A stretch of DNA of 64,000 nucleotides from Magnetococcales bacterium (GTDB lineage Bacteria > Pseudomonadota > Magnetococcia > Magnetococcales > JADGAQ01): NCBI GenBank assembly GCA_015231925.1, contig JADGAQ010000001.1, forward strand, positions 18,728 through 82,727, read 5' to 3'. A program made the position numbers and the translations under genes. Below are positions 2,943 to 60,458 of the stretch, piece by piece (position 1 is the first letter of the stretch; every line of letters starts with the position of its first letter). The notes below the pieces were generated by a model. It was not told where the DNA came from, did no database searches, and worked only from the letters and a program-made list of their open reading frames with translations.

Positions 2943-4466
2943 TCAGTTCTCCTGCTCCAGGAAAGGGGCGCTGTATTTCCGGGTGGTGAAGACCTCGAAC
3001 GTGGCTCCCGAGCGCCAGGCGTCCGCAGCCAATCCGGCCTTCCGGGAGAGTTGGGCGAGGGTCTCCTCCCGGCTCCAGCCCTGTTCCGTGGCCACTTCCG
3101 GCAGGAACACCGCCCGGCGGCCCTCTTTGGTGAGCAGGATGCCCTGTTTTCCGACGACGAAGGCTTCCGGTCCCGGGATGGGGCGCAACGGGCTCAGGAC
3201 GCTGACTTCCACCTCCAGTTGAGGCAGCTCCTCGGGCTGCACCGGGCGAAAGCGGGGATCGCGCAGCGCGGCGTTGAGAGCGTTGTCGGCCACGGCGTCC
3301 CACAGAGGCATCACCGGCAGGATGGAGCCGATGCAGCCCCGCAGATCGTGATGTTTCTTGAGGGTGACGAAGGCGCCGGAAAGACGTCGCAAATGGTCCG
3401 GAACCTCGAACCCCCGAGCGATTTCCCGAACGTTGGCGGGGGTTGAACCGGAAGTGACCACCTGTTGCAGAACGCGCCGCGCCAAACGATGCAGCAGGCG
3501 CATGTCGGCTTCCCCAAGGGTATCGGTGTCGTGATCGGGCTGTGTTGACAAGGGGGCCTCCCGGGTGACGGCAATGGCCAGGTAGCTGACCGATAAGGTG
3601 TTGTCGCGGGTCATGCGTCCGGAGGTGTCGTACTCCAGCAGGGTGACCCGGCACTCCGCGTCGAGGAGATTCAGGAGTATCCCTGCCGGGGCGGCGGCGC
3701 AACTGGTGTTTCCGGTTTTTTCGAGGTGGTCTAGGAATCCCTTGGTATCGTGACGTTGCAGGAAGCCGAAGGTGGTCATGTCCATTTCGCGGAGCCGTTC
3801 CGGCAATTGTTCGTTCGCCGGCCAGGGCTGATAGCCGTAGGCGGCGCCGTAGTGGGTGAAATCTCCGGAGATGACCAGCAGGGTCTCCTGGTCCAGCAGG
3901 GGGCGGAGGGCGTCGGCAGCCCGAGCCGCCGTATCGGGCGTGGTGCGTCCCACGATCACCGGCACCAGTTGCCAGGAATCGGGCAGAGCCACCTGCAAAA
4001 GGGGCAATTCAATCTCGATGGCGTGTTCAGTATCGTGGGCTTGAGGGGCGTTGGCAAAAAGGGGTTGCCGGCGCAGGGTATCGAGGGCGGTCAGATCGAG
4101 GGGAATCTCTCCCAGGGGGGTGGCGAAATGGGTCGCCTCCGGGAGGGAGAGGCCGGAAAACCCCACACGATGCGACGGAGACAGAATGACCACCCGGCGG
4201 GGGGGATGATCGCGGAGCAGGGCGAAGCCTCCTGCGGCCACGCCGCCGCTGTACGCCAGCCCCGCGTGGGGCACCACCAGGGCGCGCAACGGCTGGGGGC
4301 CGATCTCCGGATGGGAGGTTTTCTCTTCCAGGAGGCCGCTCACCAGATTGCGCAACGACTCGGCGGAGGCGGGATACCAGCTTCCGGCCAATACCGGTTT
4401 GCGGACCTTGCGCGCCGTGGCGGGATCCATGTTCACGGCGGTCTCTTTCCAGGAGATCCAGACCAT
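2943..4466 (-). CDS. MEMO1-family / AMMECR1 fusion protein (AmmeMemoRadiSam system proteins B+A in one polypeptide)
   Basis: 507 aa. The N-terminal half carries MEMO-type motifs (AGSWYP, VVPHAGLAYSG, ISGDFTHYG). The C-terminal half carries the AMMECR1 signature (GAFVTLKKHHDLRGCIGS, LRDPRFRPV, EVEVSVLS). Confidence 0.85.
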   Translation of the reverse strand: MVWISWKETAVNMDPATARKVRKPVLAGSWYPASAESLRNLVSGLLEEKTSHPEIGPQPLRALVVPHAGLAYSGGVAAGGFALLRDHPPRRVVILSPSHRVGFSGLSLPEATHFATPLGEIPLDLTALDTLRRQPLFANAPQAHDTEHAIEIELPLLQVALPDSWQLVPVIVGRTTPDTAARAADALRPLLDQETLLVISGDFTHYGAAYGYQPWPANEQLPERLREMDMTTFGFLQRHDTKGFLDHLEKTGNTSCAAAPAGILLNLLDAECRVTLLEYDTSGRMTRDNTLSVSYLAIAVTREAPLSTQPDHDTDTLGEADMRLLHRLARRVLQQVVTSGSTPANVREIARGFEVPDHLRRLSGAFVTLKKHHDLRGCIGSILPVMPLWDAVADNALNAALRDPRFRPVQPEELPQLEVEVSVLSPLRPIPGPEAFVVGKQGILLTKEGRRAVFLPEVATEQGWSREETLAQLSRKAGLAADAWRSGATFEVFTTRKYSAPFLEQEN

Positions 4467-4629
4467 TTCATCGCTCCTTTCGGCAGCAGGCGAGGGGGGC
4501 TCCGGTGAAAAGAATGGGACTATCCTCTGTGGAAAGCAACGATTGCCTGGCCGATAACCTTCTTAAGGTTGCGCTGGAGGGCACGGCTTTATACAATCGC
4601 CTATTTTTACCCGTCCAGAATAGCGGCAC

Positions 4630-5733
4630 ATGGCAGAAAAAGGCATCATAATCGCATGGCTCACCCTTCTTCCTGCCGTCGTCCTGGGCGGGGGGTTGGC
4701 CCATGGTGCGCCGCTGGATGAATTTTTGACGGCCCAGCACGGCTATCCTCCCTGGCATGGGGAGTGGGAAGTCGGTATGGATGTCATGAACGGCAAGCTC
4801 GATCTGCTGAATCTGCGCAAAAAGGACCAGGATTTTTCCGGAACCACCGTCGGCGACTATACCGGTTGGCATGCTTTGGGCGGAATAGCCGTAACCCGGC
4901 GGCTCTGGGTCGACGGCGGCGTTTGGGACCGTTCCATCATGACTCCCCTGGATACGGCGGAGAGCGTGGGTTGGCAGGTTGGCGCCCAGTACCAGTTCAC
5001 CGTCAATGTCGACAATCTGCCGGCGCTGGCTTTGCGCTGGACCCGTTGGGGCAACAGCGGCCAGGAGGTGGAGAAGAAGTCCGCCACCACCCTTCGCGGC
5101 ATCACCGCCGATAAGATCGCCATCAAGGGGCCGGGTGATCGCCAGACCCAGATCGACCTTCTGGCCACCTGGATGCGAGGCGAAAACGACAGCTTCTCGT
5201 TGTTTTATGGACAGGGCTGGAGCAAGGTCAACTACGACAAGCTGCTGGTCACCTTGCGGGGGGAGTGTGTCTACGACGTGGATTCTCCCAACCCCCAACA
5301 GTTCAAGGGGTTCCTGGTCAGTGGCGACCCCGATTTTTGCGAGGTGTTGAGTTTCGATCTTCACGATGAGGGGGGGGCTTTTCCGGGGAAGGGCATGGGA
5401 GCGGCTTACGATGCCCGTTATGTCCACTTCGGCGGCATGTACCAGTGGTTGGACGACAAATGGCGCACCCGTCTGGGCATGCGCTTTCAAAAACATGATC
5501 GGGATGTCGAGGATTCGGTGCATCGCTTTGGTCGCACGACTTACGACAATAACCTGACTATTGTCGGCGACGTGGGATACAAGATTTTTAAGGAGAGCGG
5601 TTTGGTTTTTAGGATAGAATTGATGAAGAATCAATTCGTGGGGGACATTCCGTTCACCTACAATACCTTTTCATCCAACCGCTTCAATCGGAAATACGGC
5701 TTTCTGACCATTGCCTGGGTCAGTGGTTTCTGA
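4630..5733 (+). CDS. putative outer-membrane beta-barrel protein
   Basis: 367 aa. It has a signal peptide (IIIAWLTLLPAVVLGGGLAHG/AP), an aromatic/Gly-rich alternating sequence and a C-terminal ..TIAWVSGF ending in Phe, as in OMPs. It lies directly upstream of the polysaccharide exporter. The long antisense ORF 4468..5634 is rejected. Confidence 0.55.
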   Translation: MAEKGIIIAWLTLLPAVVLGGGLAHGAPLDEFLTAQHGYPPWHGEWEVGMDVMNGKLDLLNLRKKDQDFSGTTVGDYTGWHALGGIAVTRRLWVDGGVWDRSIMTPLDTAESVGWQVGAQYQFTVNVDNLPALALRWTRWGNSGQEVEKKSATTLRGITADKIAIKGPGDRQTQIDLLATWMRGENDSFSLFYGQGWSKVNYDKLLVTLRGECVYDVDSPNPQQFKGFLVSGDPDFCEVLSFDLHDEGGAFPGKGMGAAYDARYVHFGGMYQWLDDKWRTRLGMRFQKHDRDVEDSVHRFGRTTYDNNLTIVGDVGYKIFKESGLVFRIELMKNQFVGDIPFTYNTFSSNRFNRKYGFLTIAWVSGF

Positions 5734-11596: not shown

Positions 11597-11629
11597 AATC
11601 CTTTTATTAATAAAAAGGGTTGGGGGAGT

Positions 11630-11669
11630 TTGAGGGGGAGCTCTGCTGCCCCCTCAAGGTTTTTCTTTT
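11630..11669 (+). terminator. rho-independent terminator after the 402-aa ORF
   Basis: TTGAGGGGG-agctctgctg-CCCCCTCAA forms a 9-bp stem and is followed by GGTTTTTCTTTTC. An additional AT-rich imperfect hairpin precedes it at about 11600-11619. Confidence 0.7.
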
Positions 11670-11670
11670 C

Positions 11671-11799
11671 GTATCTGTTCAGGTATACGGGGTTTTGGGG
11701 GGATTATCCCCACCCCAACGGGTCCAGGGGGCACCCCTGGGACTTTTCCTTGCGCTGTTGACTCCGTCATGTCGCGCTGCACAGGGCCCTGAATAGTTA
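11671..11799 (+). repeat. 129-nt GC-rich structured repeat, copy A (possible ncRNA or mobile-element terminus)
   Basis: It aligns end to end with the reverse complement of 60331..60458, with about 20 differences by hand alignment. Hairpins are visible at about 11697-11716 (GGGGA-tta-TCCCC core) and at 11725-11741 (CCAGGGG-gca-CCCCTGG). Confidence 0.8.
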
Positions 11800-11825: not shown

Positions 11826-12204
11826 TCAAAAGAAAGCATAATCAATCCGTTCCAGGAAATGAATATCGCTGAAACAAACCCTCAAAATCATCTCCAGTCT
11901 GTCGCGCATCAACGACAACCACAAAGAATGCTCCGCACCGTCATCATAATGCTCAAACGCCGATCCGGTATTATAGGGCGGATCGATGAACACACACTTC
12001 ACCTTGCCGGCGAACTCCTGCTCCAAGGCCTTCAAGGCCAGCAGGGTGTTCCCGAAGATCAGCCGGTTATCGTAAAGGTCCCCTGCGGTCCCCGGTGGCG
12101 GGCATGGTGGGATTTCGTCGCATCTTCCAGCAGAATGCGCGGCTCCGTCGAGGGCGGTACTCCTTGCCGATCCAGGTGAGTTCGAGTTTTGGCTTGTTGT
12201 TCAT
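11826..12204 (-). pseudogene. N6-adenine (DPPY-type) DNA methyltransferase, N-terminal remnant with at least two frameshifts and a 3' truncation
   Basis: The minus strand from ATG 12204..12202 reads MNNKPKLELTWIGKEY. A second frame then reads ..EPRILLED... A third frame reads GDLYDNRLIFGNTLLALKALEQEFAGKVKCVFIDPPYNTGSAFEHYDDGAEHSLWLSLMRDRLEMI and stops at 11826. DPPY is methyltransferase motif IV. Only about 125 codons remain of what is normally a far longer protein. Confidence 0.75.
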
Positions 12205-12809
12205 TGAGAGGAGTCTTTCGTTTGCGGTATGGCATTACGGGATTTATTGACTTTATTAACAACTTGAGACAAAAAACCGACTCGCCATGAATATGCTTCT
12301 GCAAGACCTTGTTCACTAATGGTTAATATATGAGGATTGATCGCTGCCTCGAAGTTTTCTAGCCACCAGTGGTCAATTTTGTGAATAAGGCTCAAGATGG
12401 CTTCTATGTGGCCGATCTCGATCATGGGGGTATGGTCATTAATAAGAATTCGTGTTATCCTATGGGCAATCTCGTTGCGATATTTGCGAAGCTCCTGGAT
12501 TAAGTCTGTTTCTTCATCTGATAGTACTTCCCATTCTTTCCATTGCGCTAATTGCATTTCGAATTGTTTCGTCCCAGAGAACAAATGTGTGTATTTTTCT
12601 TGAACTTTGAACTCAATCTGTCCTGATTCAGAAGATATATCAGAAAAGAAGGTTTCCAAATGCTCGCGTATTGCTGTCTGCAACATTTCCCACGCCAGAA
12701 GATAAAGTCCCGCGAGTTGAATTTGTTGCTCCAGACAACCGTCATCATCTAGAAGAAAGCGGCGCAGTTTATTAAGAGGTTCTTCCGAATCAGACATTAT
12801 CGAGTCCAT
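12201..12809 (-). CDS. HEPN-like (Rx4H) protein, candidate Abi/toxin-type RNase
   Basis: This is a 202-aa ORF in AT-rich DNA with atypical codon usage. It contains ..IQELRKYRNEIAHRITRIL.., where R-N-E-I-A-H is the Rx4H HEPN catalytic motif in the RNxxAH form seen in Abi_2-type proteins. Its TGA overlaps the ATG of the methyltransferase remnant (ATGA at 12201-12204). A TATAAT box on the minus strand (plus-strand 12838-12843) lies about 30 nt upstream of its ATG. Confidence 0.6.
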   Translation of the reverse strand: MDSIMSDSEEPLNKLRRFLLDDDGCLEQQIQLAGLYLLAWEMLQTAIREHLETFFSDISSESGQIEFKVQEKYTHLFSGTKQFEMQLAQWKEWEVLSDEETDLIQELRKYRNEIAHRITRILINDHTPMIEIGHIEAILSLIHKIDHWWLENFEAAINPHILTISEQGLAEAYSWRVGFLSQVVNKVNKSRNAIPQTKDSSQ

Positions 12810-12887
12810 TGTATAGCAAGTTTATTTGGCGTGGCCAATTATACCCTATTTATGAATATCTAACCTGTATAAATTGTTATTACCAGG

Positions 12888-17622: not shown

Positions 17623-18600
17623 ATGTCTCGCACTTTTCTAGACTTCGAACGCCCCATTGGCGAGCTTATGGCCAAGGTGGACGAGTTGCGCGCCCTCTCT
17701 TCCAACAACTCCGAGATACAGATTACCGAAGAGTTGTCCAGTCTGGAAAAGGAGGTTGCCAATCTGACGGAGCGGATCTTCACTAAACTGACGCCCTGGG
17801 AGAAGACCCAGCTCTCCCGGCATCCGGACCGGCCCTATACCAGCGATTATCTGGACTTGATCTTTGCCGACTTCATCGAGTTGCACGGGGATCGCAACTT
17901 CGCCGATGACAAGGCCATCATCGGTGGTTTGGCCGTCCTGGACGGGCAGGAGGTCATGGTCATCGGTCAGGAGAAGGGGCGGGGCACCAAGGAGAAGGTC
18001 TATCGCAACTTCGGCATGCCCCGGCCCGAAGGCTATCACAAGGCGTTGCGCCTGATGCGCATGGCGGAGAAATTCGGCATGCCCATCATCACCTTCATCG
18101 ACACTCCCGGAGCCTATCCCGGCAAAGAGGCGGAGGAGAGGGGGCAGGCGGCGGCTATTGCCGAAAACCTCAAAGCCATGATCGACCTGAAGGTTCCGGT
18201 GATTTCGGTGGTGATCGGGGAGGGCGGCTCGGGTGGAGCCCTCGCCATCGGGGTGGGCAACCGGGTGTTGATGATGCAGTATGCCATCTATTCGGTGATC
18301 TCCCCGGAAGGATGCGCTTCCATACTGTGGAAGGACGCCGCCAAGGCGGAGTTGGCGGCGGAAGCCATGCGGCTGACCGCCGAGGAGATTCTGGAGCTGA
18401 AGGTGATCGACGGAATTGTGCCGGAACCGGTGGGTGGGGCGCATCGGGATCCGGTGAAAGCGGCGCATCTGCTGGGCCTCCATTTGAACCGCGCCCTGCG
18501 GGAGCTGCTCTACATGTCACCGGAGACTTTGGTGCGGCAGCGTTTCGAAAAATATTTTTCCATGGGCTTGATGTTGGGCGGGGGGATGGGGATCGACTGA
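17623..18600 (+). CDS. accA: acetyl-CoA carboxylase carboxyltransferase alpha subunit
   Basis: 325 aa with the motifs [28 protein letters not shown] and [12 protein letters not shown]. Confidence 0.95.
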
Positions 18601-18686: not shown

Positions 18687-18871
18687 TTGACTTTCAATAT
18701 TTTACCTTTTAAGTGTCAAAAAAAGAAAATGTTCTATCCTTTGACTTTTTTGAGCCAAGCGCAAAACTGCGAAGTAAGGTGTTGGAGCGATCTAAATATT
18801 TTGGAAATGAAAAATCAACAGACAGAACATTTTCTTTTTTTGATATTTAAAGGATAAAATATTAAAAGTCA
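18687..18871. repeat. AT-rich long-palindrome intergenic element, copy 1 (arms separated by about 58 nt of unrelated sequence; right arm slightly degenerate)
   Basis: The left arm is TTGACTTTCAATATTTTACCTTTTAAGTGTCAAAAAAAGAAAATGTTCTATCCTTTGACTTTTTTG. The right arm is ..CAACAGACAGAACATTTTCTTTTTTTGATATTTAAAGGATAAAATATTAAAAGTCA. It lies between accA and fba. Confidence 0.85.
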
Positions 18872-18904
18872 CTCGCTTCCCGTTTGAGTTTCAGGAGGGT
18901 TATC

Positions 18905-22435: not shown

Positions 22436-22447
22436 GGGAAGAATCGG

Positions 22448-22586
22448 TTGACTTTCAATATGTTCCTTTAAGTATCAAAAAAAGGAAATGTTCTGTCCTT
22501 TGACTTTTTGAAGAAATTCAAGAAAAAGTCAAAGGACAGAACATTTCCTTTTTTTGATATTTAAAAGATAAAATATTGAAAGTCAA
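22448..22586. repeat. AT-rich long-palindrome intergenic element, copy 2 (most perfect copy)
   Basis: TTGACTTTCAATATGTTCCTTTAAGTATCAAAAAAAGGAAATGTTCTGTCCTTTGACTTTTTG - aagaaattc - AAGAAAAAGTCAAAGGACAGAACATTTCCTTTTTTTGATATTTAAAAGATAAAATATTGAAAGTCAA. It sits between two convergent genes. The stop of the radical-SAM gene (22583-22585) lies inside its last motif. Confidence 0.9.
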
Positions 22587-24313
22587 AAATTTATAGTTTG
22601 AGTTTTTGTAACTTCCTGAAAATGCAAAGGATTCTCTTTCAGTAAGCGCCGGGTCAGATGCAGCCTGACCTCGGCGGACTCCGTCAGACGATGCAGCAGA
22701 TGATGGGGACTGGTGGCCGTTCGGGCCACGGCGTCGAGATCCCCCGCACACTCCTGATAAAGGCGGGGAAGACTCGGGTCAAACCCCGCCAGGGCCCGGA
22801 TCAAGGGATCCTTGTCGCGCCGGGCGGCAATCGTTTCCAGCCGCTCCTCTCCAAGCTGTCCCAGGGTTATATGGGTCGCGCCCCCCAGCACCACCTGCCC
22901 ATCCATCCGCACCATGACATCCACTTCGAAGGGATCCCTCGGCGGGATACCCCTTTCCAGGTAAGCCTCCAGTTCCAGAGAGTTGGGCAGCAGCTCCACG
23001 GGGTCGAGTCGTTCCGCCCGGCCCATGCCGTCCACCTGGGCGCTCATCCAGAAGAAGGGTAGTTGTCGGGGATGATCCGTGAGCCGGAACTGGCCCTGTT
23101 GAAACGGATAACCGATGCGATCGGGCCGGGCGGGATCCCGTCGGGCCAGGGAACTCCGGCTCTGGCTGATCCAGTACATGGCCCGGTTGCGTTCGCGCAG
23201 CTCCCGCTGCAGTCGACCCAGAACACCTTCCCGGAATACCGCCTCCGAAAAATTGAGCCGTTCCAGTCGATGCAGCAGGGCAACTTGAATCCGGGGGTCG
23301 GCGGGAACGCTGGTCAGACAATTGGCTATCCAGGCGATGGGAATGCGTTCCTGCAGTCTGCCTTCCGGGGGAGTGGGGTAAATCTCCTGATGAAAGGCAT
23401 CGCAACTGAACTGCAGCAGCAGACCGGCCGGGCGGGCTTTGCGGGGACGTTGGTTCAAGGCCTCCAGGCAGTTCCGGTAGAAAGAGACGACTTCCTCTTC
23501 ACACTTGCCCAGGGTGCCGTTGAGGATGATGGCAAAGGTGGTCACGGCGGGCAGGGTGGCGACGGCCTGCAAGAAGAGGTCGATATGGCGCTCCGCTTCG
23601 CCGCCGGAAAAGAGCAGATGCGGGGCGAAGCGGCTGGCGGCCTGAAGAATCTCCTCCGGGGGACGGGCCTGCCCTTTCAGGGTGGGGCGCCAGGCGAAGA
23701 GACAGTGACGGCAGGATTGGCGGCAGGCCAGAGTGGGCACGATGCCCGCCTTGAGGCTGGGCAGCGGTGAAAGAGAGCCCTTTTTCAAACCGTCCACCAG
23801 GGCGAGGCGTTCCCGGTCCGGACTTCCCCCAACCTGCCGTGCAATCTGTTTCTGCCGTTGACTGAGGCGTCGCAGGGCCGTTTGCTCCTCCTCCGGATGA
23901 TCCGCGGGGCAACAGGCCAGGGCCTGGGAGACGGCCTTGACCGGATCCTCTCCGCCCTGCTGCCACCAGTGCAGCACCGCCTGCCGCCGGGGATCTCCCG
24001 GAGGCTGCTCCCGCCAGAAGGTCAGATATCCCTGCAGAAAGCTGCCGTCACTGACCGCCTGGTTCATGAGGGGGCCAAGGTAGGTTTGGGAAGGGTGGGT
24101 GAAGAGACCTGCCACGGCCTGCCCGCGCCAGCGCACATGAACGAGCCGTTGCAGCTCCCGGTAGGCCTGCAGGCAGCTCAACGGATCCAGGAGGTAGGAG
24201 GGCAACTCCTCTCGACGGGCGCGATCTTCGAGGTGTTGGCTTTCCCGGTTGCACCGGGCGCGAATCCGGCGCAACTGCGCGGCAAGGTACTCCTCCGTCA
24301 GGTCCGGTTTCAT
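22583..24313 (-). CDS. atypical radical SAM-like protein (576 aa) with long N- and C-terminal extensions
   Basis: It contains GIVPTLACRQSCRHCLFAW, the CxxxCxxC cluster motif. About 45 aa later comes LLFSGGEAERH, a GGE-type SAM-binding motif. The first roughly 190 aa and last roughly 250 aa match nothing I recognise. Its ATG overlaps the stop of the upstream glycosyltransferase. Confidence 0.6.
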   Translation of the reverse strand: MKPDLTEEYLAAQLRRIRARCNRESQHLEDRARREELPSYLLDPLSCLQAYRELQRLVHVRWRGQAVAGLFTHPSQTYLGPLMNQAVSDGSFLQGYLTFWREQPPGDPRRQAVLHWWQQGGEDPVKAVSQALACCPADHPEEEQTALRRLSQRQKQIARQVGGSPDRERLALVDGLKKGSLSPLPSLKAGIVPTLACRQSCRHCLFAWRPTLKGQARPPEEILQAASRFAPHLLFSGGEAERHIDLFLQAVATLPAVTTFAIILNGTLGKCEEEVVSFYRNCLEALNQRPRKARPAGLLLQFSCDAFHQEIYPTPPEGRLQERIPIAWIANCLTSVPADPRIQVALLHRLERLNFSEAVFREGVLGRLQRELRERNRAMYWISQSRSSLARRDPARPDRIGYPFQQGQFRLTDHPRQLPFFWMSAQVDGMGRAERLDPVELLPNSLELEAYLERGIPPRDPFEVDVMVRMDGQVVLGGATHITLGQLGEERLETIAARRDKDPLIRALAGFDPSLPRLYQECAGDLDAVARTATSPHHLLHRLTESAEVRLHLTRRLLKENPLHFQEVTKTQTINF

Positions 24314-29753: not shown

Positions 29754-30992
<1,239 letters not shown>

Positions 30993-42330: not shown

Positions 42331-42496
42331 TTTTATATTTTCAATATTTTGTCTTTTAAGTATCAAAAAAAGAAAATGTTCTGTCTTTTGACTTGTTTAT
42401 TGATTCTATGAAAATTTATTAAATGTATTATTATAAAATAAAAAGTCAAAACATTTTCTTTTTTTGATACTTTAAAGGAAACATGTTGAAAGGCAA
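42331..42496. repeat. AT-rich long-palindrome intergenic element, copy 3 (outer ends degenerate, 7-nt deletion in right arm)
   Basis: The left arm reads ..TTTCAATATTTTGTCTTTTAAGTATCAAAAAAAGAAAATGTTCTGTCTTTTGACTTG. An AT-rich centre follows. The right arm reads AAAAGTCAAAACATTTTCTTTTTTTGATACTTTAAAGGAAACATGTTGAAAGGCAA. It lies between convergent apaH and the DUF790-like gene. Confidence 0.8.
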
Positions 42497-42519: not shown

Positions 42520-43740
42520 TCAGGCCAACGTCTCATTCAAAATCTTCACCACCCGGCCCACAGGCGGCATCTCGCTGAACAGAAAACCCTTTTTGCCAAA
42601 ACAGGCCGATCCCTGCAACAGACTCATCATCTCCGGGCGGCGGGAGAGACTGCGGTCCACCCCCAGCAGCAGGGTTGCCGAAGCGGTGGACCCCTTCTCC
42701 AGAGCCGTCAACCTGCGGGTCAGCGGGCCGGCGTGCCAGGGGTGAAAAAGCTCCAGGTGAACCTCCTTGCCCGAACGATGCCGAAAGGTGAAATCCGGGA
42801 CACATAACTCCTGCCCCCCTAAATCGAGCAAAGCGACTTGCTCCTCCAACAGTTGCCACTCCGAATCGGCATCCAGGAAAGCCTTGGCAAAGAGATCGAT
42901 CCCTTCCGGTCGATAGGTGCCGAGGTGTCGGTGCGGGGGCCGGAGGGGCGAGGTTTCATCCAAGGTCAGGGTCATGACGGGCTTTTCAGGCCATTTTACC
43001 GTCACTTCGAGCCGCCAGTGGGTCAGAAGGGTGACGATGGGAAAAAAACAGGCCAGTTGAAAGCCGTATTTCTGCGTCTGTTCCAAAATGGACAGGGGAC
43101 CATCCACCACAACGTCGTAACGATTGGCTGAAAGGGGGTGGATGCGTACCAGCAGGCGAAAGAATTTGAGAGCGCGCAACACCTGACGTAACCGCCCGAC
43201 CTGCTCATCTTCCAGGGTCAGGGTCAGGGAGCCCGCCGTGATCAGGATGCCTTGAACCTGGGCCAGATTGTAACGATTGAGCAGTTCCACAGGCGTGAGG
43301 TCATCGAAGGCGAGCAGCGTCAGACGTTGCGGAAGGTCGCCGTAAAGCCGTTCGGAAAGTTCGTCGGGAGAGGTGTCGAACGCTTTGGCCACCTCGGCGC
43401 GAAAGGCTTCCAGATGGCCCATGCCGGGTTGACCGATCAGGCGGGCGGAGTGGGCCAGAATCTCCTCCCGCAGGCGCATGACGGCATCGTCCGCAGATTT
43501 GAATTGACAACGGTCCTGAACCAGTTTCAGCAACCCTCTGGCCACCTTGGGACTGCGGCTGGCATTGACCAGGGTGTCGGCGGCGTCTTCAAGCTCTTCA
43601 CTGGTTTGGCCGAGGCCTTCTCGATGCAAGGTGATCAGGTCGTCTCCGAGATTGAGCAGACTCTGATCCGTCAGGTCCACGAAGCGGGGAGTGAGCTGCT
43701 GATTGCGAATGGCAAAACGCAACAAGTCCCGAGTCAGCAT
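42520..43740 (-). CDS. DUF790-like protein (Bax1-type nuclease partner of XPB helicases)
   Basis: 406 aa. The N-terminus MLTRDLLRFAIRNQQLTPRFVD and the overall size and position match the DUF790 family as I remember it. It overlaps the 3' end of an XPB-like helicase gene by 7 nt. The family call is from memory and not verified. Confidence 0.6.
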   Translation of the reverse strand: MLTRDLLRFAIRNQQLTPRFVDLTDQSLLNLGDDLITLHREGLGQTSEELEDAADTLVNASRSPKVARGLLKLVQDRCQFKSADDAVMRLREEILAHSARLIGQPGMGHLEAFRAEVAKAFDTSPDELSERLYGDLPQRLTLLAFDDLTPVELLNRYNLAQVQGILITAGSLTLTLEDEQVGRLRQVLRALKFFRLLVRIHPLSANRYDVVVDGPLSILEQTQKYGFQLACFFPIVTLLTHWRLEVTVKWPEKPVMTLTLDETSPLRPPHRHLGTYRPEGIDLFAKAFLDADSEWQLLEEQVALLDLGGQELCVPDFTFRHRSGKEVHLELFHPWHAGPLTRRLTALEKGSTASATLLLGVDRSLSRRPEMMSLLQGSACFGKKGFLFSEMPPVGRVVKILNETLA

Positions 43741-45209
43741 GCCTCCTCCTGGCGCTGATAGGCCAGATGCTGACGGCGTCTGGCGCTGGTGAAGGTTTCC
43801 GCCGTATCCGAGGAGACCAGTTCATAGAGAATGGCCTGTTTGCCTTTGGCCGGTCGCAGAATGCGCCCCAGTCGCTGCACATGCTCCCGCACGCTGCCGG
43901 TGCCCGAAACGATGATGCCTACCGCCACTTCGGGAACATCCACACCTTCGTTGAGAACCCGTGAAGAGACCATGACCGACCAAGCCCCGGAACGGAAGGC
44001 ATCCATGAAGCGTTTGCGTTCGGAAACCTTGGTGCGATGGGTGATGACCGGCAGGAAAAAGGTCTCCCCGATGGTGTAGGCGGTGGCGTTGTCGTCGGTG
44101 AAAATCAGGATGCGCTCCTGCCGATGACGACGCAGCAACTCCCACAAGGAGCGCAACTTGGATCGGGAGGCCCGGGCGATACGTTTTTGCACACGCCAGG
44201 CTTCCATGGCCGCACGTCCTTCCCGGGAACGGGCGGAAATCTGGATGAAGCGACTCCAGCCGCCGGGATCCTTCAAGGAGATACCCTGTTCCTTGATGAA
44301 CTGGCGATAGTGGGCATAAGAGCTTTCGTAGGCCTCGCGCTCGTCGGCATCCAGCTCGATGGCGACCTGTTCCCAGCGGTAGGGGGCCAGAAAGGAACCT
44401 TCGAGTTCGGGAATTTCGGTGCGATGACACAGGGGTCCCAACAGGTCGAAAAGCTGCTGCTCCCCCCCGTCCGCCCTTTCCGGCGTGGCGGAAAGACCCA
44501 GCCGGAAGGGCGCGATACACAGGGTGGCCGCCAGACGGGTGGAGGGTGTCGGCAGATGGTGGCATTCGTCACAGACCAGAAAGCCGAAGCGATTGCCGAT
44601 GCGCTCCATGTGGATCACGGCGGAATCGTAGGTGGAGACGGTTATGGGCTCGACCAGACGATCACCGCCTCCCAGCAGGCCGATGGGTTGCGCAAAGACT
44701 CGGGACAACTGTTCATACCATTGATGCATCAGATCCAGGGTGGGAACCAGGATCAGCGTGTCCCGTTGCACCAGGCACATGGCCCTTCGGGCCAGCAAGC
44801 TTTTCCCGGCGCCGGTTGGCAATACCACCACACCCTTGCAGCCCTGTTTGTTCCAGGCGTTCAAGGCCTCTTGCTGGTGAGGGCGCATGGGCGGTTCGCC
44901 TCTGGCGCGAAAGTCTCGGGTGGAAAATTGCCGGGCCTGGTCTTGAAAGGGAATCTTGCGTTGGTGCAGATTCAATAAAATAGGTCCGTAATGACGGGCC
45001 TGGGTGCGAAAAGCGTTGGCCCTCGGATCCCATTGCACCAGATGAACCAGTGGCGCCATGTCGGCTGAACCGGCTTGAATAAGGAGGGTGCCCTGGTCGA
45101 AGGTGACCTGAATCGGCGTGGGGACACACCGCTCCGGAGGTGCCGAAACGGTCACCTCCGGAGCGGATGTCTCCTCAAAGGACGCTTTTTTCATGCAGAT
45201 AGAGGCCAA
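43734..45209 (-). CDS. XPB/ERCC3-like superfamily-2 DNA helicase
   Basis: 491 aa. Motifs are RPHQQEALNAW, Walker A VVLPTGAGKS, a DExH box LVCDECHH, LGLSATPER and a C-terminal RecA2 domain (ILIFTDD, VSSRVLNEGVDVPE, QRLGRILR). The start may be ATG 45194 (MKKASFEET). Confidence 0.85.
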   Translation of the reverse strand: MASICMKKASFEETSAPEVTVSAPPERCVPTPIQVTFDQGTLLIQAGSADMAPLVHLVQWDPRANAFRTQARHYGPILLNLHQRKIPFQDQARQFSTRDFRARGEPPMRPHQQEALNAWNKQGCKGVVVLPTGAGKSLLARRAMCLVQRDTLILVPTLDLMHQWYEQLSRVFAQPIGLLGGGDRLVEPITVSTYDSAVIHMERIGNRFGFLVCDECHHLPTPSTRLAATLCIAPFRLGLSATPERADGGEQQLFDLLGPLCHRTEIPELEGSFLAPYRWEQVAIELDADEREAYESSYAHYRQFIKEQGISLKDPGGWSRFIQISARSREGRAAMEAWRVQKRIARASRSKLRSLWELLRRHRQERILIFTDDNATAYTIGETFFLPVITHRTKVSERKRFMDAFRSGAWSVMVSSRVLNEGVDVPEVAVGIIVSGTGSVREHVQRLGRILRPAKGKQAILYELVSSDTAETFTSARRRQHLAYQRQEEAC

Positions 45210-53486: not shown

Positions 53487-56400
53487 ATGAGTGGCAAGGA
53501 TCGGGAAACGGGCTTGGGTGGTGGTGCTGGTGGAAACCGGAACACCGGTGATGACGATGCCGTGACCATCCTGGGTAGTGGCTTGCGCCTGGTGCCGGCG
53601 GATGAACCCGACAAGAGCGGGATTGCCGAGGAGGAGGATGCACCGACGGTGCTGGGCCTTCTTGTCACGCCGCCACCTTCACCGGTGGACGACGAGGATG
53701 CCCCGACGGTGCTGGGCCTTCCTGTCATGCCGCCTCCTTCCTCGGTGGACGACGAGGATACCCCGACGGTGTTGAGCCGTCCGGTCCATACCGGGGGTGT
53801 CCGCTATGATCTGTCGGACTCTGGCCGGGGAAGTGCGCCTCAGGAAGAAGACGATGCAGCGACGGTGATGGCGGTCGTTCCTCCTGCAGCGCCCACCACC
53901 CGGCCAAAGGCCGTGGTCGACGAGGCGGCTACGGTATTGGCAGTTTCGCTACCTGGCGGGGGGAATGAGGCGACTCTCCTGGCAACAGGTGAAGCAACCA
54001 CCGAATCGGAGAAGACCTCCGCCACGGATGACACCGACGGTTCGGTTTTGAAACCGGCGGTGGTGGAGCATCCGGCGGACGCTTTGCCCATCGGACAGAT
54101 GCTGTTGTGGTACAAGATCGTCAAGGTGCTGGGCCAGGGTGGTTTTGGTATGACCTACAAGGCCCACGATACGCGACTCGACAATTATGTCGCCTTGAAG
54201 GAGTTCCTTCCGACCCAGTTGGCCAGCCGGCGGCCCGACAAAACGATTCAGGCAAAATCGTCGGAGGCCGAACCTCTGTTCATCAAAGGGCGGCAGCGCT
54301 TTCTTGACGAAGCCCGGACTCTGGCCAAGTTCAAACATCCCTCCCTGGTTCGGGTGACCACCTTCTTCGAAGAGTACAATACCGCCTACATGGCGATGGA
54401 GTTCGAGGACGGTGAATCGTTGGCCGCCTTGCTGAAAGCCAAGAAGACCCTGGACGAAAAGGAGTTGCTGGGGGTCATGATGCCCCTGATGCAGGGTATT
54501 CAGGTTTTGCACGAAGCCCAGTATATCCATCGGGACATCAAGCCGGATAATATCTTCATTCGGGCCAAGGACAACACCCCCGTGTTGTTGGACTTTGGTT
54601 CGGCCCGCAGGGCATCCGGGGAGGATGGCGGCCACATGACGGCCATGTTGACTCCCAACTACGCGCCGATGGAGCAGTATTTCGAGGATGCCAGCCGCCA
54701 GGGCCCCTGGACCGATATCTATGCCCTGGGTGCGGTGATGTATCGCTGTATCAGCGGACGCAAGCCCATCGGGGCGCCGCAACGCAGCAATGCCTTGATG
54801 CGGCAGCAGCCCGATCCCTTGAAGCCCGCATTGGAAATTGGACAGGGTCATTATTCCGAAGCGGTTCTCAAGGCTATTGATCTGGCCTTGCGGGTCATCG
54901 AGACGGAACGTCCCAAATCGATTCCGGACTGGTTGAAGGCGGTCCAATCGGAGAAGGGGGGCGAGGACAGCGACCTGATCTCCATGCTGGAGACGGCGGC
55001 GGGTGCCAAGACCACCCCACCGCAACGCATCGCGGTACTGGCGACGGGGGCGGTGGCCATTCTCGGCGCGGGTCTGTTTCTGTGGAACACCCTGGCGGTC
55101 AAACTGCCTTCCCCCGAGGAGGTGGCCCGCGAGAAGGCGGCTGTGGAGTTCAAAAGCCTTCAGGAAAAGAGCATCCAGGGAGACGGTCAGGCCATGCTGG
55201 ATCTGGCTGGTCGTTATCAGGAAGGTCGGGGTGTGGCCCAGGATCCCTTTCAGAGTCTGGAGTGGTACACCAAAGCGGCCCAGAAGGGCATGCAAGAGGC
55301 ACAGTATCGTCTGGGTCTGATCTACCTTCAGGGGTTGGGAACACCGCGCAGCTCCGTCAAGGCGGTGGAGTGGTTTCAGGCTGCGGCCAAACAGGGACAT
55401 GTCGAAAGCATGTTTCAGCTTGGCAAGGCGCTGGAAATGGGGGCCGGCGTCAAGGTGGACAACAAGGCGGCCCTGGATTGGCATCAGAAGGCTGCCGAGC
55501 TGGGCCATGTCGAGGCGGGGTACCGTATTGGCGTGGCCATGGAGCAGGGGCAGTTGATGCCTCAGGATCTCAAGGGCGCCTTCGATCGATTCGTCAAGGC
55601 GGCGGAGAAGGGTGTGCCCGAAGCCCAGTATCGCCTGGGCAGCATGTTTCGGGACGGGCGCGGGATTGAAGCCGATGCCGCCAATGCCACCCGCTATTTC
55701 CGTCGGGCCGCTGCCCAGGGGCACATGGAATCCCAGTTCATCCTGGCGCAACGCCTTTTCAAGGGTGAAGGCGGCAAAGCGGACCATATCGAGGCGGCGG
55801 ATTGGTTGCGCAAGGCGGCTGAGTCCGGCCATGCGGAGGCCCAGTTCGATTTGGGCCGTGCCTATGAAAAGGGTGATGGCGTTCCTCTGGATGGCATGGC
55901 GGCATTGAAGTGGTATTCCACGGCGGCTGAAAAAGGGTTTCTGAACGCCCAGTTGATGCTTGCCGGAAAGTTTTTGTATGGGGACGGTGTTCCGGAAGAC
56001 CACAAATCGGCTGCCAAATGGTTTCAAAAGGCGGCGGAGCAGGGCAACGCCATTGCCCAAACCAACCTGGCCAAGCTCTATCGACTGGGGCTTGGCGTGG
56101 ATGTCGATTACCACAATGCCTTGCGCTGGTTTTTGGAAGCCGCCAAGCAGGGTAATGCCGAGGCCCAGAACAGTCTGGGTTCCATGCTGGAGAATGGTCA
56201 AGGGGTGGACCAGGATCTGAAATCCTCCTTCATGTGGTATCAGAAGGCGGCGGACCAGGGTGAATCCAGCGCCATGTACAATCTGGGCTGGATGTACGAG
56301 GAGGGGCGCGGAGTCGATCGCAATATTCAGGAGGCGGCGAAATGGTACGCCAGGGCGGCCTCCAAAGGCCATTCCCGGGCCCAAAACAGCCTGGGATGGA

Positions 56401-57534: not shown

Positions 57535-57685
57535 TTGACGTTTAATATTTAGTCTTTAAAAAATCAAAAAAAGAAAATGTTCTGTCCTTTGACTTTTTTG
57601 TACTTTAATAATATCTTTTAAAGAAAAGTCAAAGGACAGAACATTTTCTTTTTTTGATTTTTTAAAGGATTAAAATATTAAAAAG
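57535..57685. repeat. AT-rich long-palindrome intergenic element, copy 4
   Basis: TTGACGTTTAATATTTAGTCTTTAAAAAATCAAAAAAAGAAAATGTTCTGTCCTTTGACTTTTTTG - centre - AAGAAAAGTCAAAGGACAGAACATTTTCTTTTTTTGATTTTTTAAAGGATTAAAATATTAAAAAG. It lies between the ROK kinase and the MBL-fold gene. Confidence 0.85.
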
Positions 57686-57735
57686 AATTCCCCAATCTGG
57701 TGGTATCGTCTCCTTCGACGAAACGGAAAAAGGCC

Positions 57736-60314: not shown

Positions 60315-60330
60315 TAAAAATTAAACACTG

Positions 60331-60458
60331 TAACTATTCAGGCCCTTGCACAGCGCGGCATGATCGTGTCAACAGCGAAAGGAAAAGTCCCAGGGCGCTG
60401 CCCTGGACCCGTCGGGGGGGATAATCCCCCCCGAACCCCCGTATACCTGAACAGATAC
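60331..60458 (-). repeat. 129-nt GC-rich structured repeat, copy B (inverted relative to copy A)
   Basis: Its reverse complement aligns with 11671..11799. Its hairpins are CGGGGGGGA-tta-TCCCCCCCG and CCAGGGC-agc-GCCCTGG. Confidence 0.8.

Follow-up and report, generated by a model that had tools for sequence, protein, structure and literature searches.

Four AT-rich palindromic elements lie close to the ends of genes in a 64-kb stretch of DNA (below, the window; GC 59.6% overall) from the metagenome-assembled genome (MAG) of an uncultured Magnetococcales bacterium (assembly GCA_015231925.1, contig JADGAQ010000001.1, positions 18,728 to 82,727). Together with copies in a second assembly, they form a lineage-restricted family of non-coding, AT-rich palindromic repeats of Magnetococcales. 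In its organisation, this family comes closest to doublets of repetitive extragenic palindromic (REP) units, as found in REPINs and bacterial interspersed mosaic elements (BIMEs), and to miniature inverted-repeat transposable elements (MITEs) of the foldback type. We think it probable that it is a new non-autonomous family of this REPIN/BIME/MITE-like kind, whose transcripts form terminator-type hairpins at 3′ ends; that these hairpins act in termination is what we infer from their design.

An arm profile built from the alignment of the eight window arms (consensus TTTGACTTTCAATATTTTATCTTTTAAGTATCAAAAAAAGAAAATGTTCTGTCCTTTGACTTTTTT) retrieves with nhmmer exactly these eight arms of about 62-65 nt, which form four inverted pairs (E 9e-19 to 5e-15); it finds no solo or degenerate arm besides them in the 64 kb. 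In the repeat search the arms make up the two largest direct-repeat families of the window. The first-pass annotation of this DNA, made from the letters without database searches, had placed four such copies here and derived an arm consensus from them; we find the copies at the same coordinates to within 1-3 nt, and its consensus is essentially that of our alignment. The four elements, W1 to W4, are composed as follows.

W1, left arm: 18687..18750, plus strand; outer end TTGACTTTCAATA, A7 run at 18718-18724 (nhmmer E=3.4e-18)
W1, centre: 18751..18808; unique, 58 nt, 41% GC, no match to any other centre or locus
W1, right arm: 18809..18872, minus strand; T7 run at 18835-18841 (E=4.7e-17)
W2, left arm: 22447..22509, plus strand; A7 run at 22477-22483 (E=1.9e-18)
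W2, centre: 22510..22522; 13 nt, GAAGAAATTCAAG
W2, right arm: 22523..22586, minus strand; T7 run at 22549-22555 (E=8.6e-19)
W2, AT-rich flank: 22587..22640, minus strand; degenerate outer-end motif AATCCTTTGCATTTTC on that strand, tentatively, by direct reading
W3, left arm: 42334..42396, plus strand; A7 run at 42365-42371, outer TTGAC degenerate (E=3.6e-17)
W3, centre: 42397..42434; unique, AT-rich, 38 nt, 11% GC
W3, right arm: 42435..42496, minus strand; T7 run at 42459-42465 (E=2.5e-15)
W4, left arm: 57535..57598, plus strand; A7 run at 57566-57572 (E=1.6e-17)
W4, centre: 57599..57622; unique, AT-rich, 24 nt
W4, right arm: 57623..57688, minus strand; T7 run at 57649-57655, outer TTGAC degenerate (E=5.1e-15)

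The elements are 139-186 nt long, and their centres (13-60 nt) are mutually unrelated. As inverted repeats, W1 pairs 18688-18749 with 18810-18871 (85% complementary, 60 nt apart), W2 pairs 22464-22509 with 22523-22568 (96%, 13 nt apart), W3 pairs 42339-42394 with 42436-42491 (84%, 41 nt apart) and W4 pairs 57545-57602 with 57619-57676 (90%). The right arm of W3, which is devoid of the GGACAGA segment, is the most diverged of the arms. From a tandem array in the second assembly and from the flanks, the arm can be resolved into units: the basic unit is 54 nt long with a direct repeat, TCCTTTGACTTT, at both ends, and one arm corresponds to about 1.2 units. This motif occurs four times per element, and additional partial copies stand beside some arms. 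The flank at 22587..22640 is probably a decayed partial arm, a tentative reading from the sequence, as nhmmer does not pick it up.

We found no conserved open reading frame (ORF) in the elements; indeed, stop codons interrupt the arm consensus in five of its six frames, and indels separate the arms, which argues against remnants of one duplicated gene fragment with coding potential. Nor is there any target-site duplication above chance: the best flanking direct repeats are 3-5 nt long and lie within the range of random window pairs (P 0.24-0.97), and the first-pass annotation was right on both counts. Candidate duplications of 3-12 nt were rejected, including the GCCCT pair at copy N5a of locus L005, which is probably due to chance (P = 0.24). 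The flanking sequence is different at each copy.

Wider distribution was assessed by scanning the exact 23-nt invariant core against 185,579 species, with one genome each, and against metagenome and viral collections. Among the species representatives, true family members occur elsewhere only on contigs JADGAP010000044 and JADGAP010000238 of GCA_015231965.1 (bin nNGHbin13), and none was found in the metagenome and viral collections. This second assembly adds 13 full arms and one decayed copy, so that the mobile-element reading of the first-pass annotation, which depended on further copies, gains them. They lie at three loci, L002 (contig 238), L003 (with a solo arm on contig 44) and L005.

L002:1428-1607 and L005:464-646: inverted pairs with centres of 53-56 nt
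L002:2628-3041: inverted pair with a 183-nt centre
L005:6500-6839: inverted pair with a 215-nt centre that holds a different, nested repeat
L002:716-778, L003:3300-3362 and L003:7097-7160: three solo arms
L003:5156-5515: decayed copy, with a partial arm core and a right-arm fragment
L002: threefold tandem array with a period of 54, made of head-to-tail right arms that come after the 183-nt centre, directly upstream of the pyrC start, and end 8 nt before the ATG

Across the family, short centres are AT-rich, and GC-rich hairpins, a microsatellite or a nested element of another family are found in the long ones. There is no overlap between L003 and L005, and a split gspL reading frame suggests that they abut. 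Three further core matches, at L001 and L004 (genome representatives) and L006 (metagenome), are without palindrome or extended similarity and were set aside as chance. BLAST against plasmids gave one 33-nt chance match, and against phages none. Rfam yields only two tRNAs in the window at gathering score, and its permissive scan of L002 only microRNA-precursor hairpin matches far below threshold. We found no account of such repeats in Magnetococcales in the literature. The family appears to be undescribed, although elements of its kind are well known.

The copies in the second assembly come from a different genome, at least in part. Indeed, the GC content at third codon positions (GC3) of contig 44 (0.83 +/- 0.04) fits that of contigs 11 (0.84) and 3 (0.81) in the core of the bin and is unlike that of the window genes (0.735 +/- 0.048, n = 28), and contig 44 must therefore belong to a genome other than that of the window. 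The bin core contigs encode an AccA and a ROK protein 75% and 65% identical to those of the window, and for the PyrB of contig 238, identity to other PyrB proteins of the database does not exceed 78%. While housekeeping proteins are thus only 65-78% identical between the genomes, the right arm of W2 is 97% identical to the solo arm L003:7097-7160 (N3R) and 91-92% identical to three other arms of contig 44. Mean identity over all arm pairs is about 82%, and the arms do not group by genome.

One could argue that there is no real element, and that the repeats are remnants of a duplicated gene fragment or an artefact of assembly or binning. Both genomes are short-read MAGs of one study, and one bin is demonstrably mixed: nNGHbin13 has two pyrB genes, MBF0285391 on a 9.7-kb contig and MBF0285960 on contig 238, which are 72% identical to each other, and this MAG probably includes sequence of a second Magnetococcales genome as a contaminant. 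However, the stops in five of six frames and the frame-breaking indels leave no room for a gene fragment, the flanks differ at each copy, and intact housekeeping genes in syntenic order surround the copies, on a contig of 97 kb as well as in an independent assembly. We regard this explanation as effectively refuted.

Relatives show that the copies are insertions. All six orthologous junctions that were examined are empty, and the arm profile finds no arm in the relatives' loci L007-L011. In L007 (JADGBX01) and L008 (contig 11 of JADGAP01), other sequence without an arm lies between accA and fba; the FGE/radical-SAM-like junction of L007 is an empty 49 nt; in L009 the pyrR-pyrB and pyrB-pyrC junctions are only 21 and 112 nt long, both empty; and in L011 (contig 3 of JADGAP01) the ROK and MBL genes overlap by 10 nt, with no element. 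The check for insertion polymorphism proposed with the first-pass annotation thus turned out in its favour, and since the orthologous junctions are empty, the copies are lineage-specific gains. At least three of the insertions split tightly packed operons.

The insertions border on stop codons or overlap them. Pfam confirms as neighbours in the window a class II aldolase (fba), a protein of the formylglycine-generating enzyme (FGE)-sulfatase-like kind, a metallophosphatase, a DUF790 protein, a ROK kinase and a metallo-beta-lactamase (MBL) hydrolase, and a homologue search confirms accA (17623-18600, protein MBF0307925.1) as the gene of the alpha subunit of acetyl-CoA carboxylase, the next-nearest AccA proteins being 78% and 75% identical. 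The gene contexts given in the first-pass annotation are thereby borne out, with the radical-SAM-like assignment below the Pfam threshold (26.3 bits against a cutoff of 29.5). W1 (accA>fba) and W4 (ROK>MBL) lie in co-directional junctions, W2 (FGE-like/radical-SAM-like) and W3 (metallophosphatase/DUF790) in convergent ones. W1 lies 86 nt past the accA stop and about 33 nt ahead of the fba ATG; W2 starts 12 nt past the stop of the FGE-like gene (22435); W3 lies 13-16 nt past the metallophosphatase stop (42318), with its right arm 24 nt from the DUF790 stop (42520); and W4 lies 9 nt past the ROK stop (57525), with its right arm 48 nt ahead of the MBL-hydrolase ATG (57737). Over the family, copies are found at 0-86 nt from stop codons, often within operons. 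Adjoining W3, at 42520-45209 on the minus strand, an XPB-type helicase (ResIII, XPB_DRD and ERCC3 C-terminal domains) is encoded directly upstream of the DUF790 protein, an order that we take to be the arrangement of the XPB-Bax1 helicase-nuclease pair.

In three cases the element even supplies the stop codon. In the window, the radical-SAM-like ORF stops at the TGA of the terminal TTGAC motif (22583-22585, minus strand, where the first-pass annotation had already seen it inside copy 2), and so do pyrR in L002 and gspK in L005. The radical-SAM-like ORF has 17 extra C-terminal residues compared to its orthologue, encoded by the W2 flank 22587..22640, and pyrR has one extra residue at the stop provided by the arm. 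Over the approximately 11 loci of both assemblies, nine are between co-directional genes and none between divergent genes. At least six are internal to operons, namely gspD|E, gspK|L and gspL|M of type II secretion, pyrR-pyrB, pyrB-pyrC and ROK|MBL.

Whole copies fold into long hairpins, as had been claimed, with energies of -47 to -80 kcal/mol and z-scores of -7.4 to -17.8 that none of 200 shuffles equalled. W2 is the most stable (-79.9 and -77.2 kcal/mol for the two strands, z about -17.5), and is followed by W4 (-68 and -66 kcal/mol, z about -15), W1 (-66.8 kcal/mol, z -9.3) and W3 (-47.1 kcal/mol, z -7.4). Single arms fold no better than their shuffles (z -1.3 to +0.6). The small hairpin AAAGGA-n9-TCCTTT, which the first-pass annotation described as terminator-like inside each arm, was thus rejected in favour of a stem formed between the arms. 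In all eight paired elements, on both strands, this stem is framed as A7-G[stem]C-T7-GAT. At its base, 9-29 bp are perfectly paired without interruption, the stem encloses the centre, and the stem energies are -12 to -42 kcal/mol for centres of less than 110 nt. Eight of the 12 A7/T7 runs of the window are inside the elements; from its composition, about 1.4 such runs would be expected in the whole window.

The A/T tract and the stem base are the most conserved part of the element. In the conservation of PREFERENTIAL, the 25-nt core ATCAAAAAAAGAAAATGTTCTGTCC carries 17 substitutions in 525 (3%) compared to 98 in 672 (15%) for the outer 32 nt (Fisher p = 5e-12). Partner arms are paired in 95.3% of cells, and nine pairs are changed on both sides, compared to 5.2 +/- 1.5 in shuffles, of which 4 in 500 reach this number. 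A cruder permutation test of the similarity between partner arms reaches only p ~0.09. Canonical short terminator-like sites are not enriched in positions 1-60000 of the window (21, 12 and 27 found, compared to 19, 20 and 22 expected), and standard terminators made of a hairpin and a U-tract seem to be little used in this genome. Since such sites are no commoner than in shuffles, the A7/T7 design of the elements stands out.

If an element were transcribed from either side, its arms could pair into a long hairpin with A7 before the inner stem and U7 directly after it. In its build, this corresponds to a bidirectional intrinsic terminator or to a hairpin protecting 3′ ends. It resembles bidirectional terminators in the A-tract upstream and the U-tract downstream of the stem, and in that two of the four window copies are between convergent genes. 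Conserved terminator repeats, such as the mycobacterial TRIT (mentioned in PMC3384566), and long-stem terminators (PMC10325885) are known. Unlike the intrinsic terminators with a short G+C-rich stem (about 5-14 bp) and a loop of 3-8 nt, the elements have AT-rich stems of up to about 25-30 bp and centres of 13-215 nt. When transcribed, an element would most likely cause partial termination, stabilisation of the upstream message or both, as for REP/BIME and ERIC, rather than an absolute stop. Of the terminator claim in the first-pass annotation, the architecture stands, with the A7/T7 runs now placed around the inter-arm stem in the most conserved region; the intra-arm hairpin falls, and the copies inside operons argue against selection for strong termination.

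Several observations weigh against termination. Strong termination is unlikely, because nine of about 11 loci are co-directional and at least six lie in operons, where a strong terminator would be harmful. The stems are AT-rich, have up to about 25-30 continuous pairs, far more than usual terminators, and close loops of up to about 200 nt; moreover, a simple consensus terminator scan does not flag the elements. The A-run is exactly seven long in 20 of 21 arms, and a fixed length fits a constraint on spacing or protein recognition at least as well as it fits a U-tract. The three solo arms (L002:716-778, L003:3300-3362 and L003:7097-7160) keep the core, which has no partner there, as intact as paired arms do.

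These last two points are also what would be expected from a purely selfish repeat, in which the core (GTATC-A7-GAAAATGTTCTGTCC, 25 nt) and TCCTTTGACTTT are recognition sites of a transposase or recombinase, the A7/T7 symmetry is incidental and transcription plays no role. The four copies of TCCTTTGACTTT per element, with the partial ones beside some arms, would then resemble subterminal binding sites, the frequent copies within operons speak for this reading too, and the near-identical arms in divergent genomes would suggest a shared active source or horizontal transfer. On the other hand, no transposase was found in the window or the related loci, the modest covariation of partner arms is not needed for the recognition of single arms, and no locus is in a divergent junction, where promoters lie. 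We hold this reading to be somewhat unlikely, and it and a side effect at the RNA level are not mutually exclusive.

The elements could instead be dispersed binding sites of a host DNA-binding protein, such as integration host factor (IHF) or HU, a silencer that binds AT-tracts, or gyrase. They would then have a part in organising the nucleoid or supercoiling at the ends of genes, as BIMEs in E. coli or the IHF site in Correia elements do. The 25 nt of the core show strong position-specific conservation, and their TATCAA, followed by the A-tract, corresponds to the strong half of WATCAANNNNTTR, the consensus for IHF of E. coli. The elements are also AT-rich islands in a 60% GC genome: in 200-nt windows over 17.5-23.5 kb, W1 and W2, the two that were profiled, have a GC content of 0.32-0.37 in surroundings of 0.60-0.70. 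However, the TTR half of the consensus is missing (AGA stands in its place), and the lineage-specific insertion sites and patchy spread of the elements, which among 185,579 species representatives occur in two assemblies only, suit a mobile element better than a host regulon. Such a function is in our view very unlikely.

We also considered the arms as insulator modules, in which an outward promoter in each arm (TTGATA, then, after 18 nt, GAAAGT or GAAAAT) restarts downstream transcription after the hairpin stop, and which would account for the tolerance of copies in operons. By direct reading, TTGATA follows the T7 run directly in nearly all arms, with a hexamer containing A2/T6 18 nt further on, and one such site passes a lenient scan (42366-42337, minus strand, 9/12). 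Promoter-like matches in the 40-60 kb part of the window number 11, compared to 5.6 +/- 2.2 expected, and five of them are in W3 and W4. However, such matches come readily from AT-rich DNA, the second hexamer has only three of six consensus positions in the consensus arm, and the outward promoter suggested in the first-pass annotation did not hold up: W1 and W2 have no match to the sigma-70 consensus at all, and the scattered 9/12 matches of W3 and W4 lie in different parts of the arm and mostly point inward. We find this explanation most unlikely.

Returning to a REPIN/BIME/MITE-like repeat, the full element consists of two inverted arms around a free centre (13-215 nt) that can receive other small elements. 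New intergenic sites acquire copies, typically 0-25 nt from a stop codon, and sometimes the copy supplies the stop. The absence of target-site duplications points to a trans-acting enzyme, presumably encoded elsewhere in the genome; candidates would be an enzyme of the hairpin or single-strand type (Y1/RAYT- or IS200/IS605-like) or another non-duplicating transposase. Among the points that count against this scheme, no mobilising enzyme was found in the window or the related loci (neither a transposase, recombinase nor Y1/RAYT protein among the approximately 50 window ORFs scanned, and neither a transposase nor a RAYT in the second-assembly loci), and no excision or insertion event was directly observed. 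Neither the window and the related loci nor the plasmids, phages and viral contigs searched showed a parent element with the same termini. Moreover, the copy number rests on 64 kb plus about 20 kb, and the host assignment of contig 238 is uncertain because of the two pyrB genes, a coverage of 5.8x (17x for contig 44) and a GC3 of 0.71, both lower than in the core contigs.

REP doublets (REPINs) and BIMEs, known from Pseudomonas and enterobacteria, are mobilised by RAYT tyrosine transposases (Y1), whose gene is flanked by the same repeats. REPINs are inverted doublets with a less conserved spacer, which occur beside singlets and tandem clusters, undergo compensatory changes and are extragenic (PMC3116915). 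Our family is alike in most of these respects: an inverted doublet forms a hairpin at all four window loci and at four of the second assembly, three solo arms and a threefold tandem array exist beside the doublets, all loci are intergenic, often in operons and at 3′ ends, compensatory changes are seen, and no target-site duplication is made. However, REP units are described (PMC3733652) as about 20-40 nt long, imperfect palindromes in themselves and tagged GTAG or CGTC at one end, while the Magnetococcales arms have 54-65 nt, are not self-palindromic and show no consistent tag, GACG being present in a minority of them. Unlike in REPINs, the centres are free and differ in every copy, the spacing (13-215 nt) is not fixed, and the unit is AT-rich in a GC-rich genome. 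In the 64-kb window and the related loci, no RAYT was found.

The elements also resemble MITEs such as Correia/NEMIS, RUP, ERIC/IRU and YPAL (PMC2229807). Like these, the elements are mostly below about 200 bp, non-coding and A+T-rich, have inverted termini, form long RNA hairpins, are inserted between genes with empty sites in relatives, and can alter the 3′ ends of neighbouring ORFs. In contrast to classical MITEs, which are deletion derivatives of DDE insertion sequences, they have no TA termini or target-site duplication, the whole arm is the inverted repeat rather than a terminus of 10-30 bp, and the interior is not common to the copies. The family thus departs from the classical MITE in two defining features, duplication and shared interior. 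In the broader sense meant by the first-pass annotation, a MITE/REP/ERIC-type element, the assignment agrees with what was found: a dispersed, non-coding repeat with conserved arms, free centres, further copies and empty orthologous junctions.

Two other systems share parts of this build. Pneumococcal BOX elements (boxA-boxBn-boxC) are modular, with a variable number of a module of about 45-55 nt and termini that pair into a stem-loop. Our elements resemble them in their modular build and pairing termini, but BOX elements consist of three different sequences in a fixed order, whereas our family repeats one unit, either directly or inverted, and is not similar to BOX in sequence. The attC sites of integrons also lie at the 3′ ends of genes and form imperfect palindromes, conserved at their ends and variable in the centre; however, the elements end in TTGAC...GTCAA without GTTRRRY/RYYYAAC core sites, there is no cassette array, no integrase was found, and the neighbours are syntenic housekeeping genes.

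Other repeats were found in the window and in the second assembly. A second, GC-rich family of about 125 nt is present in the window at 11672-11799 (plus strand) and 60330-60458 (minus strand), and outside it at L005:6641-6768, L005:3536-3721 and L003:6808-6978. It has 12-nt terminal inverted repeats TAWCTRTTCAGG with TA on both sides, and internal hairpins G7ATTATC7 and CCAGGG...CCCTGG; by the design of its ends, it looks like a classical TA-duplicating MITE. Identity is 88-93% between the two genomes and only 77% between the two window copies, and an AT-rich element carries one copy nested in its centre. A third piece, shared by window 11601-11669 and L003:5445-5513 with 85% identity between the genomes, has a GC-rich hairpin GAGGGGGAGCTCTGCTGCCCCCTC beside AAAAAGGGTTGGGGGAG; in L003 it is located within the decayed AT-rich element. 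In the 183-nt centre in L002 (2689-2871), a (AGAGGATT)x4 microsatellite accompanies two GC-rich hairpins with perfect stems, GTCGTTGCCTTGGCCAATC...GATTGGCCAAGGCAACGAC and GCCCTCTTTTCGGG...CCCGAAAAGAGGGC.

Beside the window repeats, a small AT-rich island (11860-12850) carries what is left of a DNA methyltransferase on the minus strand (IDPPYNTG motif, about 11950-11990). It also has an AT-rich ORF (12201-12809, GC3 0.40) with weak HEPN-family matches, and looks like a degraded defence or toxin module. In L003:3553-4804, a HigB/HigA-like toxin-antitoxin pair and an AT-rich ORF (4229-4804, weak HEPN match) lie between the solo left arm and the decayed copy, as if foreign genes sat between arms. 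Homology of the two AT-rich ORFs was rejected by BLASTP.

Because of the nested TA-flanked repeat, the hairpins and microsatellite in the centres, and the HigBA and HEPN-like island of L003, the element could be more than tolerated. It might be a self-contained mobile cassette of transcription punctuation, moved horizontally between distant Magnetococcales, that combines a bidirectional terminator with weak outward promoters and offers, at the tip of its hairpin, a preferred landing site to other small elements, perhaps even gene cassettes. Were this the case, the element would actively rewire the operons in which it lies (pyr, gsp and ROK-MBL). We consider such a cassette quite unlikely.

Apart from these elements, the window has two tandem 60-nt repeats (53628-53747, 87% identical) in the gene of a 1041-residue Ser/Thr kinase with ten Sel1 repeats, and a third, more distant match to them at 30433-30492.

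Small palindromic intergenic repeat families are common in bacteria, and another one is by itself unsurprising. What makes this one of interest is its conservation across genomes, the two-way terminator design in operons and a centre free to take up other elements. It provides a clean diagnostic marker for a group of uncultured magnetotactic cocci and is probably also a source of breaks in their assemblies. Arm identities of up to 97%, against 65-78% for proteins, point to either horizontal spread among co-occurring Magnetococcales or unusually strong constraint. The copies inside operons offer a simple test case for the stopping or stabilising of transcripts by hairpins and, if a mobilising enzyme were found, the family could extend REPIN/RAYT-like systems to much longer, AT-rich units.

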